A stretch of DNA of 64,000 nucleotides from Podarcis cretensis (Eukaryota), in contig OX638164.1 in NCBI GenBank assembly GCA_951804945.1, positions 29,822,001 to 29,886,000 on the forward strand, given 5' to 3'. Positions 27,901 to 39,717 of the stretch are shown one piece after another; position 1 is the first letter of the stretch, and each line of letters opens with the position of its first letter. The translations under genes were made by a program, and so were the position numbers. The notes below the pieces were generated by a model. That model ran no database searches. It saw nothing but the letters and a program-made list of their open reading frames with translations, and was not told the DNA's origin.

Positions 27901-30490
27901 TCTTTGAGACTTGGTAAAGTCAGTTCTCAGCCTTGCGGTTTATTAATCTTTGCTTAGTTACAACAATTCCATGCACACATTTTCACATGTAAATAAATCT
28001 GGAAAAGACCTGATTTAAAACCTGTTTACATAAAATTATTGCATCCAATTGCTAAATTCATGAGGGAGATGGCACCTAGCACTGTCTAGGGCTTACCTCA
28101 AACTGCACAAGAGGCTCATTCAAGAGAGGAGCAGAGGCAGGTGCCTTGTCATTAGGTAGGAGAAGGTAAGCAGCAGGTTGTATCAACCACAGTAAAATCA
28201 TAAATAAGTGCTGCATAACTGTTTACAGCCTTTGATTAATCAAACAATCTATGGTCTTTTAAACTGTGGCCTTTTAAACTTTTAAACTGGAGGAGTTATT
28301 GTTTTTGTTTGGTATTATGTTATATATAATCTATATTATGAAATATTATATATAGAGAGAGTGTGTGTGATTTTATATTGTAAACCACTCTGTTATCTTT
28401 GGAAGAAAGGCAGAACAGAAATTCAATAAACTAAACTAAACAAAACAAACAAACAAGCATAGGAAGCTGCCTTATATTGTCAGACCACTTAATCCATCTA
28501 GCTCAGTATTCTCTACAATGAATAGCAGGAGCTCTCCATGGTTTCAGGCAGGCAACATTCCCAGTCCTACCTAGCGATGCCACTGGGGCTTGAACCAGGG
28601 ACCTTGTGCATACAAGCCAGATGCTCTACCACTGAGCATCTATGGCCATTCCCATATAGAAAGATTTTGGGGAACAACTGTATAACAACCTTCTTCAGCC
28701 TGGAGCCTTCCAGATGTTTTGGACTGCAACTATGCACAACCATACAGGCTGGGGCTGATAGGAGTTGTAGCTCTACAGGCTATCAGATTGGGGAACACTG
28801 CCGCAAAGCAAGCTACTTAGTCAGCCTCCCAACCTAAGCAATAGAAATACCCCATGGTATTGTAGTCCAATATCTGAAAGGCCAATAGATTGAACATTCC
28901 TGCTTTACAGGAATATAGGAAGGTAGGGAAAGTACTGAACAGAAGAAAGAGAAAACAATATAATTGTAGAGTTGGAAGAGATTCCTGAGGATCATCTAGT
29001 CCAACCTCCTGAAATGCAGGCATTTCAACCACATCATATATAACAGATGGCCATTCAACTTCTGCTTAAAAACCTACGTGGAAGGAGAGTCCACCGCCTC
29101 CCGAGGGAGACTGTTCTACTATCAAATACTGTAGCTCTGTCAGAAAGTTATTCCTGATGTTTAGTTGGAATATCCTTTCCTGTAACTTGAAGCCATTGAT
29201 TCAGGTCCTAGCCTCCTGAAAGGTCTTTAGGTATTTGAAGATGGCTATCATATCTCCTGCCAGTCTCTTCTTCTCCAGGATAAATATGCTCCCTTAACCA
29301 GTGATGCCTGACCACCTAGACACCCTTGCTTGCAGGGAGGCCGGCAAGCAGACAGAAGAGCGCCGGGCAAGGACACATCCCTACGCAAAGTGCATTGCAA
29401 CTGTGGCGAGATTGCTTCCCTGCAGGAGGAGTGCGGAGGCAGGCAAGATCGTGGCCCCGCGGCTTTGATAGTCGGGAGGAGGGGGGGGGGAGAGAGCTCT
29501 TCTTCCCCTCCCAGCGGGCAGAAATGCAGGTGCGAGCGGGCCTTGCCGCTCCCGCTCCCTCCCCGGCGAGAAGCGCGGATGCTTCCAAGGAGAGAGCGAG
29601 AGAAGGGAGAGGGTGGCGCTGGCGTCCTCGCTCGCTCGCTGCTTCTCCCGCCTCGCCGTTCTTCGCGCGCAGCAGCAGCATCTCCTCCCGGGGAGGCGAG
29701 GTGGGCGTGCCTGTCAAGTCTCCCGCGGCTGCCCAGGCTGCTGGTTGCGAGGCGGGCACGAGGTGGGCGGATCCCCTCCGGGAGGTGGTGGTTGTAGAAA
29801 GGGGGGGGGGGGAGGTAAAAAGAAAGCCTCCGCCTTCTCCCGCTCCATCCATCCCGAGGCGGCTCGTTTCCCGCCGGGCGCGAGCGCAGGCACGCCCCCC
29901 ATCTCCTGCCGCCCCGCGTGCGCGCGCGCTTCTCTCTTCCCCCGCCACACACGCGAGCGAGCGAGCGCGCGTGCTAGGGAAGTCTCCCCCCGCGCCCCCC
30001 CCCGCACACATCCCGCTCCCCTCCCCCGCGCGCCCGGCCGCCTGCTCCTCACCTCTCCACTGCCCGCCTCAGCACCGCAGGCCGCCCGGAACCGGCGCAG
30101 GTTGATGCCGATGGTGGCCGAGACCTGGAGCGCCGCGTCGAAGCCCGGGGCCACCCCGGCACTGGCCGCCGTCGCCGCTACCGAGGAGGCGGCAGCGGCG
30201 GCGGCGGCGCCCGAGCCAGGAGCAGCAGCGGGTGGAGGCGGAGGAGGCGGCGGGCCGAGGGCGGCGGCGGCGGCGGCGGAGGCCGAGGAAGAGCCGCCCG
30301 CCCCGCCCCCTCCACCGCTGTTTCCCGCCGGCGCGGCCGCTCCTCCGCCGCCAGCCGGGCGCTCCTCGGGCGGCTCCCCGCGCAGGCTGCGCACGGCCGG
30401 CACCCGCACGCGGCAGCCCCCGAGCCCGCGGCGGCCCCAGCCACAGCTGCCGGGCCGGGCCGGGAAGCGCCACCGACCGCTGTGCGCCAT
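756..30490 (-). CDS. KMT2A: Histone-lysine N-methyltransferase 2A (MLL1), exons 1-21; gene continues beyond window start
   Basis: Spliced ORF has menin-binding RWRFPARP, LEDGF-binding FIGFGSD, AT-hooks, CXXC, PHD1-3, bromodomain and start of ePHD; all 21 exons GT-AG with consistent phases. Confidence 0.98.
1021..2250 (-). mobile_element. Degraded CR1 LINE 3' portion
   Basis: RT-like remnant ADSSKAFYKAPCDILISKL (cf. LDFSKAFDKVPH) and CR1 3' tail tctagtccaaccc. Confidence 0.75.
2359..2465 (-). CDS. KMT2A: KMT2A exon 20 (107 nt)
   Basis: SDRSLEDSPELTPPPDVEDNRQCALCLKYGDDGGN. Confidence 0.94.
2868..3061 (-). CDS. KMT2A: KMT2A exon 19 (194 nt; HCF1-binding DHNY)
   Basis: SGMLPNAVLPPSLDHNYAQWQERE...PTPLHPSTPPIS. 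Confidence 0.95.
3395..3468 (-). CDS. KMT2A: KMT2A exon 18 (74 nt)
   Basis: QMERVFPWFSVKKSRFWEPNKVTT. Confidence 0.95.
3747..3857 (-). CDS. KMT2A: KMT2A exon 17 (111 nt)
   Basis: LEFSDDIVKIIQAAMNADGGQPELKKANSMVKSFFIR. Confidence 0.95.
4236..4409 (-). CDS. KMT2A: KMT2A exon 16 (174 nt)
   Basis: AAKPPDLNPETEESVPSRSSPEGPDPPVLTEV...GGYISV. Confidence 0.95.
4849..4977. other. Assembly gap (129 N) in KMT2A intron 15
   Basis: Run of N. Confidence 1.
5752..5936 (-). CDS. KMT2A: KMT2A exon 15 (185 nt; PHD3/bromo)
   Basis: EMYEILSNLPESVAYTCINC...LLNSRTSSHLLRYRQ. Confidence 0.96.
6350..6463 (-). CDS. KMT2A: KMT2A exon 14 (114 nt; PHD3)
   Basis: NFCPVCDKCYDDDDYESKMMQCAKCDRWVHSKCENLS. Confidence 0.95.
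6809..6929 (-). CDS. KMT2A: KMT2A exon 13 (121 nt)
   Basis: ICTKCVRCKSCGATTPGKGWDAQWSHDFSLCHDCAKLFAK. Confidence 0.96.
7250..7345 (-). CDS. KMT2A: KMT2A exon 12 (96 nt; PHD2)
   Basis: QLLECNKCRNSYHPECLGPNYPTKPTKKKKVW. Confidence 0.95.
7407..7612. mobile_element. hAT-family MITE (young)
   Basis: Perfect 16-bp TIR CAGAGCTTTCCAAACT and perfect 8-bp TSD ctttagac. Confidence 0.92.
7763..7909 (-). CDS. KMT2A: KMT2A exon 11 (147 nt; PHD1/2)
   Basis: FVYCQVCCEPFHKFCLEDSERPLEDQLENWCCRRCKFCHVCGRQHQATK. Confidence 0.96.
8424..8537 (-). CDS. KMT2A: KMT2A exon 10 (114 nt; PHD1 start)
   Basis: EDCEAENVWEMGGLGILTSVPITPRVVCFLCASSGHVE. Confidence 0.96.
9100..9228 (-). CDS. KMT2A: KMT2A exon 9 (129 nt)
   Basis: ERPPPVSKPDNGTLNLLSTLSNGNSSKQKPLIDGVHRIRVDFK. 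Confidence 0.94.
9854..9927 (-). CDS. KMT2A: KMT2A exon 8 (74 nt)
   Basis: IEQSRQKKITPRPSLPVKQKPKEK. Confidence 0.92.
10291..10674 (-). CDS. KMT2A: KMT2A exon 7 (384 nt)
   Basis: AVKKKEKKSKSSEKK...PPSTGPPKKEAPK; phase 1-1. Confidence 0.9.
10912..10976 (-). CDS. KMT2A: KMT2A exon 6 (65 nt)
   Basis: MRKCQNLQWMPSKAYLQKQAK. Confidence 0.95.
11752..11986 (-). CDS. KMT2A: KMT2A exon 5 (235 nt; CXXC domain)
   Basis: RRCGQCPGCQVPEDCGVCTNCLDKPKFGGRNIKKQCC. Confidence 0.96.
12218..12395 (-). CDS. KMT2A: KMT2A exon 4 (178 nt)
   Basis: GQESDSSETSVRGPRIKHVCRRAAVALGRKRAVFPDDMPTLSALPWEEREKILSSMGND. Confidence 0.95.
12876..12985 (-). repeat. (TAA)n microsatellite with adjoining LINE (L2-like) 3' end
   Basis: ~12 TAA units then ttatttataccccgccc. 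Confidence 0.7.
13352..16032 (-). CDS. KMT2A: KMT2A exon 3 (2681 nt; AT-hooks, SNL1/2)
   Basis: 920-aa ORF with RKPRGRP, KRRGRPP, RRRGRPP and IRQFIMPVVSAISSRIIKTPKRF. Confidence 0.97.
16680..16749 (-). CDS. KMT2A: KMT2A exon 2 (70 nt)
   Basis: DEQFIGFGSDDEAKGQSPTKSPT; AG/GT boundaries. Confidence 0.93.
18183..18409 (+). mobile_element. Tc1/mariner-pogo (Tigger-like) MITE, copy 1
   Basis: TIR CAGTGGTACCT...AGGTACCACTG with TA target duplication. Confidence 0.9.
23497..23587 (+). mobile_element. tRNA-head / CR1-tail SINE fragment
   Basis: gggatagctcagt...ggactagatgaccctc..ggtcccttc..tatgattcta. Confidence 0.6.
28962..29320 (-). mobile_element. CR1 LINE 3' fragment
   Basis: tagagttggaagag...catctagtccaacc tail; similar to 1021-1400. 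Confidence 0.75.
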
Positions 30491-31100: not shown

Positions 31101-31301
31101 CCCTTCTTCTTTCTAAGGGTGCAAGGCCAGCTTTGCTTTGCAACTGGAAGTCTCCGCTTCTCCCCCTCTAGTAAGGCTGCTCTCTTGCCCTCCCTTCTCT
31201 TCACTTGGCACCAGTGCGAATTGCCCCTCTTCCCTGGGGGCGGCGGCAAGGAAAGCTTCACACCAGCTTTGCTGATGAAACCCAAATTTGGCAGACGTAT
31301 C

Positions 31302-31580
31302 CGGTTCGAATCCCCGCGCCGGGGTGAGCTCCCGTTGCTCTGTCCCTGCTCCTGCCAACCTAGCAGTTTGAAAGCACGTGAAAGTGCAAGTAGATAAATA
31401 GGTACCGCTCCGGCGGGAAGGTAAATGGCACTGCTCTGGTTTGCCAGAAGCGGCTTAGTCATGCTGGCCACATGACCCGGAAGCTGGACGCCGGCCCCCT
31501 CAGCCAGTAAAGCGAGATGAGCGCCGCAACCCCAGAGTCGGTCACGACTGGACCTAATGGTCAGGGGTCCCTTTACCTTT
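31302..31580 (+). mobile_element. Sauria SINE, 5'-truncated
   Basis: B-box ggttcgaatccc, body cctgccaacctagcag...catgctggccacatgacc, (ACCTTT)n tail. Confidence 0.9.
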
Positions 31581-35019: not shown

Positions 35020-37700
35020 CTGAAAGAAAAGAGAAATATTTCACAACTTTTGCCACTTTAGCGAATCATCCCTTCAATACACAAACCCCATTCCAGAAGC
35101 TTCCTTATGATCCATGACAGGGTGCATTACATGGCACACTCTAGTTCCTAGAAAATATCTGTGCCCATGCTTCCTCCACAGGACTGAGAAAGAAGGGGCA
35201 GATATTTTAGCATTTCAGGGTTCGGCCCCCAAATTCATCCAAGATTCCAGCCTCAGGAATAGGAGCTCCTATGAACCAAGTAAAGCTTTGCAAGTTACAT
35301 CACCTACGATAAAAGAATGAAAATGCAACTGCATGCCAGTTTACAAACAACTTTGAGACTATGACTGACTGTTGCAGGCATCACTGTTCTGGACAAAGAA
35401 GCAACCAGCCAGGATGAGGTCAGAGGCCCAGCCCACAATCTCAGGAGTTTTTTTTTTTTTAAAAAAAAACTTTAATGATTTACAAGTTGTAATGTTTTAG
35501 AAGAGTCACAATTTTTGTATCAGGGTAATGTACCAACAAGGTGTTCAATTGGTCTTTTGCTTAATATTGACTGAGTCCACTTTTTACATTCAGCCAGATA
35601 TAACCTATTATAGATATGTTACAGATAGGTAGCCGTGTTGGTCTGCCATAGTCAAAAAAAAAAAATTCCTTCCAGTAGCACCTTAAAGACCAACTAAGTC
35701 AGTTCTTGGTATGAGCTTTCGTGTGCATGCTCATACCAAGAACTGACTTAGTTGGTCTTTAAGGTGCTACTGGAAGGAATTTTTTTGTTTTGACTATGGC
35801 AGACCAACACGGCTACCTATCTGTAACTGGAACTATGGAAGGCACCACATTGAGCCGCATGAAATGGAAGTCTATCAACCGGTATCTGAAGAAGTGTGCA
35901 TGCACACGAAAGCTCATACCAAGAACTGACTTAGTTGGTCTTTAAGGTGCTACTGGAAGGAATTTTTTTGTTTTTATTATAGATATGAACAGCTATAGCT
36001 TAGGGTAATGACTTTCACTTCTGGCTTGCAGTTACCTTGACAGTGAGCTGTTTGATGCGGCCAGTCTGCATGCTCTTCAGCAATCCTTTCATGCCATCAA
36101 TGGCCTTAGGAATTTCAGCAGGAGTTGGGGGAACCAATTCAACTTTAGCATAGTACAAAAAAGTGGCCAGGCGAGGCTTTGAATAAGTGATAGCAGCTGA
36201 AAGAGATAAGAGTGGGATGAGATGAGAGCAAAAGCAGGTGTGTGCAAAGCAGACATCTACAAATCACCATAAACTGATGTCCCACTGTGCCAAAAGTGGC
36301 AGTTTCCTGACAGCAGGTAAAACTACTGTCATTAAACACCTGCGTCCAGTGGGGGAATCACTGTTCTCAATCTGCACACAATGGCCATTTAATATGAACT
36401 CTTGAGTGAATAACCAAGGTTAGAAAAGTAGTCCAAATCCCCAGCACTGGCACATTTTTAAGCACCAGGGCAAAGCAGCACTTGGAATTTTTCCAACTCT
36501 CTAGGTAACTATTCGCACATGTAGGTCAAAACCTGCAGCATCCAAATATTCAGTGCCAGAACTCACTTGAGTGTTTAAGTACATTTAAAATAATTTAAGC
36601 ATTTGAAGTAAGTGCAATTCTGGTCCCTACTGGCAACAATGGTAAGTGCCTTTAACAGTTTGGAATACCATTCAATAAGTAAAGCTCCCACACAGGTGAT
36701 GGCGACTAAGAAAAGAGCCATCTCTGTAGTGTTGCTACGTTGGTAAGAATCCCCCCCCCCAGCACGGCATTGTTTGCCAGGTGTCATCATGGTATGGTTC
36801 ATGGGCGTAGCCAGGGGTGGCAGCTGGCCCCCCTAAATCAAGTCAATAAATAAAAAAAACTAAGAGTAGAAATTGGAGAAAGATTTTGACAGATTTCTCT
36901 GAGCAGCTGGGGTCAAAAGAAAATAATTTAAAACAACTGTTGAGACATTTCAGCCCGAATCTGCTAAACAGAGCCAGACAGAGGATGATGACAGGTCGTG
37001 CCCCCTCATAATCCTGACTACTTTTCACCCTCCCAACATAAATCCTGGCTTTGCCCACGGTATGGTTTTAGATGCTAGGTTAAGACCGCCTTATTCTTCT
37101 GGGCATGCAAAGGTCAGTCCCACTGCATGCATATCAAACAGTTTTATTGAACTGCTGCTTGATTAAATTTTATACATGCTCTGCCATGAGCTCCAGTATT
37201 ACTTGCTGCACGGTATTACCGTGGGATGGGATTTAAAGCCACAGTGCGACTAAGCAGCAAACTCGTTCCTTTGGCAGAAGCCAGGGCAGGACGTCAGGTT
37301 CCCTTAGGGCAATTCACCGGTTCGACGCAAGCCTCAAATGAAACCCCTTCCCCGCCCGACCTTCGGCCCCACAGCTCTCGGAGCGGCCGCCCCCAGCACC
37401 GAGGCTGGGGAAGGAGCAGCGGGAGTAGGGCAAAGCGAAGGGCCGCCCCTTGCCAAGAGCGGCGACGGCTCGTCGCCCGCCCCTTAACAGGGGGCAGGCT
37501 CCGTGGCCGGCGCCGCCTGCCCTTCCTCTTCCAGCGCGGACGGGAAAGCGGCGGCAGCCTGGAGAAAGAGAAGCGCTTCTTCTTCAGCGGCCCCTGAAGG
37601 AAACTCGCCCGAACCGGCGCCCGTCCCCTGACTGACCAGAAACAAGCTTGGGCCCTTGGGTGGTGATGGCCGTCACCAGCTTCTGCGCAGCCTGCGCCAT
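34921..37700 (-). CDS. ATP5MG: ATP synthase membrane subunit g (ATP5L), 3 exons, 107 aa
   Basis: Exons of 64+161+99 nt; [13 protein letters not shown] and [22 protein letters not shown]; syntenic between UBE4A and KMT2A. Confidence 0.97.
35619..35974 (+). mobile_element. Non-autonomous Penelope-like element: inverted plus tandem pseudo-LTRs
   Basis: TSD tattatagatatg at 35606-35618 and 35975-35987; inverted arms 35618-35716 / 35729-35827; 183-nt direct repeat period. Confidence 0.85.
35881..35920 (+). ncRNA. Minimal type I hammerhead ribozyme (PLE-type)
   Basis: GGUAU-CUGAAGA-A-GUGUGC(AU)GCACAC-GAAA-GC-UC^AUACC: stem I, conserved core, stem II, palindromic AGCU mini stem III. Confidence 0.8.
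36036..36196 (-). CDS. ATP5MG: ATP5MG exon 2 (161 nt)
   Basis: [53 protein letters not shown]. Confidence 0.96.
36800..37059. mobile_element. hAT-family MITE in ATP5MG intron 1
   Basis: Imperfect TIR catgggcgtagccagg / cctggctttgcccacg; 8-bp TSD gtatggtt. Confidence 0.85.
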
Positions 37701-38290: not shown

Positions 38291-39717
38291 GTTCCTAATA
38301 CATAGATATTTGCGTGCAGGTTATGGGTTGGGGGCGTTACAGTTAAATAACAGCTGGTGCCCGTGAAAGAGTTTTTGAAACCATCATAGTTACTTGACTG
38401 TACAGATAAAGGCAGATCCAAGAGCACTTTTTGCATGCAGAAGGCCCCAAATTAAGTGCTTAACCTTTCCAGGCAAGTCTTAGATCCCTGCCTCAAACCA
38501 TGGAAAGTTGCCACCAATGTAGACAACTCTGAGCTAGGTGGACTTTATAAACCCGACATCATAATAAATCTGACTTTATTTAAGGCAGCTTCTGACATTC
38601 CTAAAGCTGAGCTTTCGCAGCAGAATACAGCCCCATCCATCACTGGCGGAACACTCCCTAAGCCAGGGTTTCCCAAACTTGGGTCTCTAGCTGTCTTTGG
38701 ACTACAATTTCCATCATTCCATTGTCCTGCCAGCTAGGGATGATGGGAGTTGTAGTCCAACAACAGTTAGAGACACAAATTTGGGAAACCGTATCCTAGA
38801 CAAACCACCCACAGTGCCCCACTTCAATGTAGTGGGAGTAGCAGCATGCTTTTTACCCCCCCCCCCCCCATTACCTGCTTCTTCAAATTCAGGTCTTCTT
38901 CCATGGGGAGTGGTTCAAAAAAACAGATTGTGTAGGGGGAGATACTGTGGGACACATTTAGACAGACCCTGTCATGGAGCCCTATCCAATTAATTAAATT
39001 TCTCCAAGCCAATGCACCCCTGAATACAGGCAAGTTGTGGAAGGAAGGGGAGGTGGTTATGGAAGCTATGGATAGGAGGAAGAAAGTGTCACAGGGTATA
39101 AAAAGACGGGCCTGTGACAAGCATGTTGCCTGCTTTGGGGGTATCTGGATATCACACACTGCGAAATGGGGTGAGAAGAAGCACTTTTGGTGCACCACTG
39201 ATATTGGGAAACCAGTCGTGCAACCCTAAAAAGAAAGAAAAGAAAAATTAGGAAGCCCAAGGACCTCAAGAAAGCAGTTTCATAATTGTTCTTTATCTCC
39301 TTACACAGGACCAGCTAGACAGCTCAAAGTGTAGGATCTCCACTGGGAAGATTTAAATGTGTTTAGGCCCTGAGGAAGGATTGTGGAATCTTCTATAGGG
39401 TTAGGGTTTTCTACACCAGGCTGGAGGGGAGGAAAGCCAACAAGAATATACGAAAAGCGTCTACTTCTGGAGAGCTGATCAAGTATATGCTCTACCTCAT
39501 TTAAATGGAGCAGGATAGAATATTTAAAACAAAAATACATAATTGTTTTGAAATGGAAATACTGAAGAGTTAAACAAAGAGCAGCCAAGGGGCATGTTTA
39601 GCACACCAACTCCAATAAGGTTGCAGCAGTGACCCTGGTAGAGAGGAAGTGGTTGAAGGTAGGTGGCTACAGGATCAACAGGCATACAACACCAAAGAAA
39701 CATGGACACCTGACACT

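Follow-up and report, generated by a model that had tools for sequence, protein, structure and literature searches.

A short insert in intron 2 of the ATP5MG gene of the lizard Podarcis cretensis combines a hammerhead ribozyme with a 183-nt repeat, which raises the question of whether it belongs to a ribozyme family that spreads on its own or is a by-product of an autonomous retroelement. The locus lies in a stretch of 64,000 nt (the window, to which all coordinates without a locus label refer). The initial annotation had assigned it to a young non-autonomous family that could yield ~183-nt monomers or circles.

The insert and its source element

Sequence comparison confirms the architecture first described: a 13-bp target-site duplication (TSD), 356 bp between the TSD copies, an inverted arm and a 183-nt repeat (Table 1). 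We number the element from +1, the G four bases ahead of the hammerhead core (window 35882); on this scale the ribozyme is predicted to cut after +34 and the ORF opens with its ATG at +138, and further upstream lie a TATA box, beginning at -33, and a CCAAT motif, at -87. In these terms the insert reads inverted +130 to ~+17, forward +31 to +183, one G, and forward +1 to ~+95, and every part comes from within element +1 to +183. Over 99 nt the inverted arms (35618-35716 and 35729-35827) are 99% complementary, and the direct repeat comprises 69 nt at 35729 and 35912, 97% identical at a spacing of 183; Tandem Repeats Finder did not report the insert locus. The inverted arm, which includes the 36-nt ‘tail’ end but of the hammerhead only its 3′ half, meets the forward piece at a 2-nt GC microhomology, and the T-rich tract at ~+95 is one of two preferred insertion ends.

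Table 1. Features of the insert, its host intron and the source locus (window coordinates unless a locus is named).
Feature	Position	Strand	Description
Left target-site duplication	35606..35618	.	13 bp, exact repeat of 35975-35987
Inverted pLTR arm	35619..35730	-	element ~+130 back to ~+17; 97% to L033; 99-nt inverted repeat
Forward pLTR piece	35729..35834	+	element +31 to the base preceding the ATG
Start of the autonomous element's ORF	35835..35880	+	first 46 nt, 15 codons; element +138 to +183
Seam G	35881..35881	+	non-native; intact element has T
Minimal type I hammerhead, start of second pLTR copy	35882..35919	+	+1 = 35882; predicted cut after 35915
pLTR beyond the predicted cut site	35916..35974	+	stops in T-rich tract at ~+95
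Right target-site duplication	35975..35987	.	48 nt from exon 2 splice donor
ATP5MG intron 2 (host)	35020..36035	-	exons on either side encode ATP synthase subunit g, PF04718
L033 tandem	L033:1978-8894 (G000:C14, ~51.055-51.062 Mb)		two intact units and a 5′-truncated third

An intact 3,011-bp element in the same genome matches 35729-35880 at 98% identity, over the tail of its pLTR and the opening 46 nt of its ORF, and the young age first proposed is borne out by 2 substitutions and 1 gap over 153 columns relative to that element. At locus L033 the 3,011-bp unit is present as two identical copies, both with an open frame of 925 aa (RVT_1 + GIY-YIG). This tandem is probably very recent, and it constitutes a natural reagent for the biochemistry of Penelope-like elements (PLEs). 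The source ORF matches RT (PF00078, E 1e-11) and GIY-YIG (PF01541, E 1.4e-4, at its cut-off), with a single CX4CxxC linker match at residue 785. A CX2-5CxxC linker between RT and EN defines Neptune/Nematis in the accessible text of PMC8557442 and, as judged by its sequence, the source is an EN+ Penelope-like element of Neptune/Nematis layout. The Penelope-like origin originally assigned to the insert thus holds.

In the accessible parts of PMC8557442 and PMC3846280, EN+ PLEs of this type share with the source the RT, the CX4CxxC linker and the C-terminal GIY-YIG, and with the insert the TSD, the inverted arm, the 36-nt tail at one end, a TATA/Inr-like pLTR and a partial tandem. A pLTR from partial tandems, an inverted 5′ copy, a one-sided tail of 30-40 bp and a TSD are all present here. 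The insert differs from these elements in that its tandem unit measures only 183 nt, the ORF being cut after 46 nt and joined to +1, and the same parts of both papers describe no such breakpoint hot spot.

The 53-nt spacer consists of the pLTR end and the first 46 nt of the ORF; its segment 35835-35880 matches the start of the L033 open frame, and an in-frame ATG lies upstream of the ORF piece, at 35796. The earlier statement that the insert has no ORF is misleading, as 35835-35880 is the ORF start of the autonomous element. The initial annotation had also set its proposal against the case that 35828-35880 is ordinary 5′ sequence of a full-length element, with no tandem monomers elsewhere; the former applies, as this segment is an ordinary pLTR and ORF start, but short tandem units do exist elsewhere.

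ATP5MG is encoded on the minus strand, with PF04718 matches in both exon 2 (36036-36196) and exon 3 (from 35019), and the complete hammerhead lies on the plus strand, so that the ribozyme is antisense to the gene, as first noted. The insert is probably a passenger in the ATP5MG pre-mRNA, which would form the 99-bp hairpin and remain uncut, and apart from this added intronic hairpin it probably has no effect on ATP5MG. The near-perfect hairpin (35618-35827) would lie ~200 nt from the exon 2 donor in the pre-mRNA, and is a possible editing substrate or influence on splicing. Elsewhere in the window, 38675-38790 forms a hairpin with weak Rfam miRNA-type matches and is probably a small inverted-repeat element, ~31290-31580 is a SINE-like repeat resembling inserts nested in L020 and L031, and 30188-30283 is a degenerate GGC repeat inside a GC-rich stretch.

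Seams and breakpoints at related loci

A genome search with a spacer motif gave 79 exact matches to the ORF start, all of which we examined; the fate, seam and anchor counts that follow cover exact-match (young) copies only. The hammerhead start is joined by 38 matches, the TATA region by 3 and the pLTR tail by 6; of the remainder, 9 join another part of the element, 12 join host DNA and 11 are still within the ORF where the retrieved DNA ends. The short-join pattern has 35 matches, spread over 33 loci, and a hand count gives 25 different seams among them. The commonest seam is common to at most three loci, that of the insert is unique among the 33, and a non-native G precedes +1 in 16/33 seams. 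The short units were made anew many times, with no single copied master. Since the seam differs at most sister sites, the insert is likely a recurring by-product rather than a member of a self-spreading ribozyme family.

On the strength of this seam diversity we reject a fixed-monomer family, and the young non-autonomous family with a 183-nt unit first proposed is not upheld: the seam is unique, the spacer is an ordinary ORF start and units range from 170 to >840 nt. Similar units do occur elsewhere in the genome, as had been anticipated, with ~170-200-nt units and two short arrays (L006 and L126), but their seams are of 25 kinds. That model, taken as a non-autonomous retrozyme family that propagates a 183-nt unit through dimeric hammerhead cleavage, circularisation and re-insertion, could draw on the 170-200-nt units at 37 loci, on the two or three complete hammerheads one unit apart at six of the 37 (L002, L006, L009, L016, L022 and L126), on the eight loci that repeat the seam of another locus and on the mean of 176 bp given for the reptile retrozyme consensus in the accessible part of a preprint (bioRxiv 10.64898/2026.07.22.740005). 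We nevertheless regard such a family as very unlikely, given the private seam of the insert and the continuous unit lengths. The nine shared-seam loci carry differing variants in the scored segments or match the intact element, and no common mini-master is seen in the four shared-seam groups compared, a comparison of low power that covers 9 loci in 4/5 shared groups, the first segment of L085 not being comparable. One variant position is common to L010 and L030, and the singleton L017 has the same position.

The positions of the breaks carry further information. The right break falls exactly at +1 in 22/34 joins, a set that includes loci picked by similarity to the insert's seam and is therefore biased toward ~183; the fate, seam and anchor counts do not share this bias. 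Left breaks have their onset at ~+170 (the shortest being +170 and +172), peak at +175-183 and tail to +848; among the 38 hammerhead-start joins, the left break lies at +178-196 in 23 and at +209-848 in 15. A genome search with upstream anchors returned 0 matches with left breaks from +134 to ~+163, and these anchors rule out that the peak is an artefact of the motif end at +178. A small hairpin is predicted at ~+170. None of the joins found lies at the ribozyme cut site: the joints are 34 nt upstream of it, at +1, and in the insert's seam the ORF piece is followed by one non-native G and then by +1, 33 nt below the TATA box. The accessible text of the literature searched holds no description of this breakpoint window.

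Ordinary stubs stop at the same place. A non-native base stands at -1 in 2,483 copies (1,618 G and 865 A plus C, the native base being T) and at -3 in 1,544, and native sequence reads on to -8 in 3,521; +1 is a general stopping point. G makes up 65% of the non-T bases at -1, against ~31% expected if a GC content of 44% is assumed. The first 100 bases at -3 among the matches listed are 81 T, 10 G and 9 C, and this prevalence of T does not support cap-G as a general rule at the -2 start; the extra G may have been copied from a cap or may come from a one-base snap-back on stem I. The 5′ breaks form a second, minor cluster that coincides with the TATA box or falls immediately below it (-33 to -24; L035, L036, L057, L031, L103 and L114).

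These breakpoints bear on three further explanations. (i) Loss of the interior of a longer pLTR-ORF-pLTR insertion, at the DNA level and once it had integrated, accords with the long internally deleted copies (left breaks to +848) and with the 1-3 nt of microhomology at some joins to the TATA region or -5. Random loss, however, would neither fix +1 (22/34) nor add a G, and would not empty +134 to +163 yet peak at +175-183; the insert copy is also very young, and we find this origin most improbable. (ii) Back-splicing to the acceptor-like CAG just before the hammerhead would give a circle that is later copied. In its favour, the native bases preceding -1 look like a 3′ splice site and, according to the accessible text of PMC4209133, helix I is where the intron of the D. 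virilis Penelope ends. Left breaks are scattered rather than placed at GT donors, the T at -1, which splicing would retain, is missing from most seams, and seam diversity largely refutes this route, to which we give hardly any credence. (iii) A promoter-started short RNA could be ligated from +1 to ~+180 into a circle without ribozyme cleavage, with RT rolling on the circle. The fixed right break and narrow left break suit this explanation, as do the seams repeated within L006 and L126 and the one L126 variant common to 3/3 copies. Yet repetition of a seam within a locus is seen at 2/37 loci only (L006, 3 x 182 nt; L126, 2 x 170 nt), the non-native seam bases (G in 16/33) resemble RT additions, a capped end is not directly ligatable, and the CpG pattern of L006 is simply explained by DNA duplication after insertion, so that ligation appears unlikely.

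In L006 a CpG C>T change is found in 3/3 forward copies and is absent from the inverted arm. The three-hammerhead arrays at L006:1283-2039 and L126:421-971, with their repeated seams (182 and 170 nt), are the best circle candidates; the insert locus is in neither the multi-hammerhead nor the repeated-seam set.

The outer ends of head-to-head inserts follow a rule of their own, with ~+95 at one end and ~+131 at the other. An end at +80-106 is paired with one at +122-140 in 32/34 classifiable cases among 68 examined, the other 34/68 having an end outside both classes or being unscorable with the short reference. This pairing is the known one-sided tail.

Hammerhead fold and RNA reads

Stems I and II of 35881-35920 are recovered as first described (-10.1 kcal/mol, RNAfold). 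The core has an unpaired base between 9 and 10.1, a G10.1-C11.1 pair and a palindromic 15.2-16.2, which are the marks of PLE min-HHRs in the accessible text of PMC4209133, and the fold and these marks fit the minimal dimer-type hammerhead of the initial annotation. The metazoan PLE min-HHRs of that text are also alike in their short helix I, long helix II and thousands of dispersed copies; the 30-nt core has 7,956 exact matches in the 1.5-Gb genome, with 0 for the reversed control. All pairs of the 5-bp stem I are present, but the fifth needs the non-native G35881; the intact element has T at this position, hence a 4-bp stem I. In the suggested search with hammerhead models, Rfam gave no hammerhead family at E<=1 for the insert. 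The Rfam matches obtained, of miRNA type and to lactis-plasmid, fall short of the gathering threshold and stem from the long inverted repeat, and we reject them as an identity for the insert.

Only one complete hammerhead is present at the insert locus, so the two sites for the usual release of a monomer are absent; the upstream half-site would be buried in the 99-bp hairpin. When two copies are cofolded, the AGCU palindromes pair, but stems II merge too. As far as the accessible sections report, min-HHRs cleave poorly in vitro (PMC4209133), and dimer cleavage was seen in 1/9 tested, 8/9 Xenopus dimers staying uncleaved (bioRxiv 10.64898/2026.07.22.740005); both observations count against a self-propagating retrozyme family. 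The forward pLTR piece does start near the predicted cut site, as first noted, at +31 and thus 4 nt ahead of it, but its junction shows the 2-nt microhomology and sister loci invert at many other points, which makes this closeness weak evidence of cleavage. In the read-through context (L033:2734-2751), the models pair the CUGA core with bases just ahead of +1, which would block the hammerhead, and in an RNA beginning at +1 stems I and II are predicted to fold; according to these models, transcription start is a possible on/off switch of the hammerhead.

We mapped RNA from four raw runs with the same species label (other individuals, standard libraries; 6-12% of each run read) to L033:2560-3400. 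Depth is high across the pLTR and near zero across the ORF, and 87-91% of the reads continue into unrelated sequence, as expected for stubs inside host transcripts. No pile-up of read begins or ends at the cut site or +1 is listed in the four runs, whose standard libraries may miss cut-site ends, and the lack of cut-site ends speaks against the retrozyme family; the insert's own join is absent among the joints listed for the four runs. A go-back join from +191 to -3 (L033:2932 to 2739, 194 nt) appears in two single-cell runs from a single study, with 7 and 12 reads. It has no exact match in the assembly, where 3 genomic joins sharing its left side differ, and may reflect a genomic copy in those animals or a circle: its presence in two runs and absence from the assembly favour the retrozyme family, but the identity of the join in two samples fits a genomic copy.

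A proposed template jump and the origin of retrozymes

Taken together, we think it reasonably probable that an intact Neptune/Nematis-type PLE gave rise to the insert as a one-off by-product, and that the insert's 183-nt repeat likely stems from an end-to-end template jump of the RT, during insertion, off the 5′ end of a short RNA begun at the promoter. The CCAAT and TATA motifs at -87/-33 would start the transcript at or just before +1, so that the RNA opens with an uncut hammerhead. By analogy with the PAc element (Poseidon, Anolis), the element protein would nick both target strands and prime internally at +95 and +131. The +95-primed cDNA would reach +1, gain one C (a cap copy or a 1-nt stem I snap-back) and jump to the 3′ end of a ~180-nt RNA, at +183; trimming from the 3′ side may be halted there by a protein footprint, as suggested by analogy with a different clade. 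Joining of this cDNA to the +131-primed inverted arm at the GC microhomology would complete the insert, and ribozyme cleavage would be needed in none of these steps. The +170 lower bound may, by the same analogy, mark the minimum RNA still bound by protein. In L124:1373-1610, a 17-nt patch (element +176 to +192) lies between the inverted arm and a G plus +1 start, and looks like a jump abandoned after 17 nt.

The steps have precedents in other elements. In the accessible text of PMC11167929, PAc nicks and extends both strands and initiates internally at two tail-defining sites; uncut RNA is used, and ORF sequence downstream of the initiation sites is needed. Two preferred tail-defining ends are found here as well, and the two-strand model on uncut RNA fits the 32/34 mixed-end inserts. 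PAc belongs, however, to a different clade, its initiation sites are inside the ORF whereas both ends here precede the ATG, and a jump from 5′ end to 3′ end is not reported in that text. R2 RT jumps in vivo from an RNA 5′ end onto another RNA and adds non-templated bases, as in the present reading (PMC3414825, accessible part). The R2 SIDEs of the same source are likewise short, internally deleted, ribozyme-bearing derivatives, but they are propagating families with one seam, whereas the units described here are mostly single events.

Several observations weigh against the template jump. RNA reads of other individuals show no begin pile-up at +1. The extra G is not general, T prevailing at -3, so that a copied cap is one option among others; a G can come from microhomology with the stem I complement as well. 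The seams repeated in L006 (three times) and L126 (twice) are equally explained by a closed circle or by DNA duplication, half of the head-to-head inserts (34/68) lie outside the two-end classes or are unscorable, and the idea of a protein footprint rests on an analogy with a different clade. The inverted arm may instead derive from an antisense template, as argued for inverted PLE inserts in the accessible text of PMC3846280.

For the origin of PLE tandems, ribozyme cleavage followed by ligation has been proposed (Cervera and De la Pena 2014, PMC4209133, accessible text), whereas the new joint of the insert lies at +1, 34 nt upstream of the cut site. Animal non-LTR retrozymes, as described in the accessible parts of PMC7229834 and bioRxiv 10.64898/2026.07.22.740005, resemble the insert in unit size, type I hammerhead, pLTR origin, long TSD and lack of protein; its 183-nt unit, 15 leftover codons and 13-bp TSD fit the ~150-450 nt, noncoding nature and long TSD of this class. 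Those retrozymes form tandem families that share a unit, and the coral ones have a canonical ribozyme and demonstrated circles, whereas the insert, known from DNA, has one complete minimal ribozyme and a private seam. Under the rule of at least two consecutive complete hammerheads in the preprint, six sister loci (6/37) would pass and the insert would not, and a shared monomer is likewise lacking, with 25 seams at 33 loci and a continuum of lengths. The preprint derives retrozymes from pLTRs and proposes local amplification, in the part accessible.

The insert locus is real, young and ordinary. It is one of ~8,000 Penelope hammerhead stubs, and its value is in the family data, which bear on PLE tandem formation, on the role of the hammerhead and on the origin of retrozymes from pLTRs. 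A genome that combines an intact element, apparently a recent one, with +1/+180 seams formed independently dozens of times leads to sharp predictions: (i) a start at +1, (ii) short RNAs ending at +170-200 and (iii) joints made by RT, not by the ribozyme. Circles should be sought at the six loci with two or three ribozymes. On retrozyme origin the sharp breakpoint window offers a modest amount of information, and by-products of this kind may show how ribozyme families begin. More tentatively, and with somewhat less than even confidence, we suggest that the pLTR promoter gives a ~170-185-nt RNP with an uncut hammerhead, and that repeated RT jumps from 5′ end to protected 3′ end, with no covalent circle, mint hammerhead tandems of retrozyme size. 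If true, the +170 lower bound would map an RNA element that the protein must bind, and animal non-LTR retrozymes would have a birth route without ribozyme cleavage.
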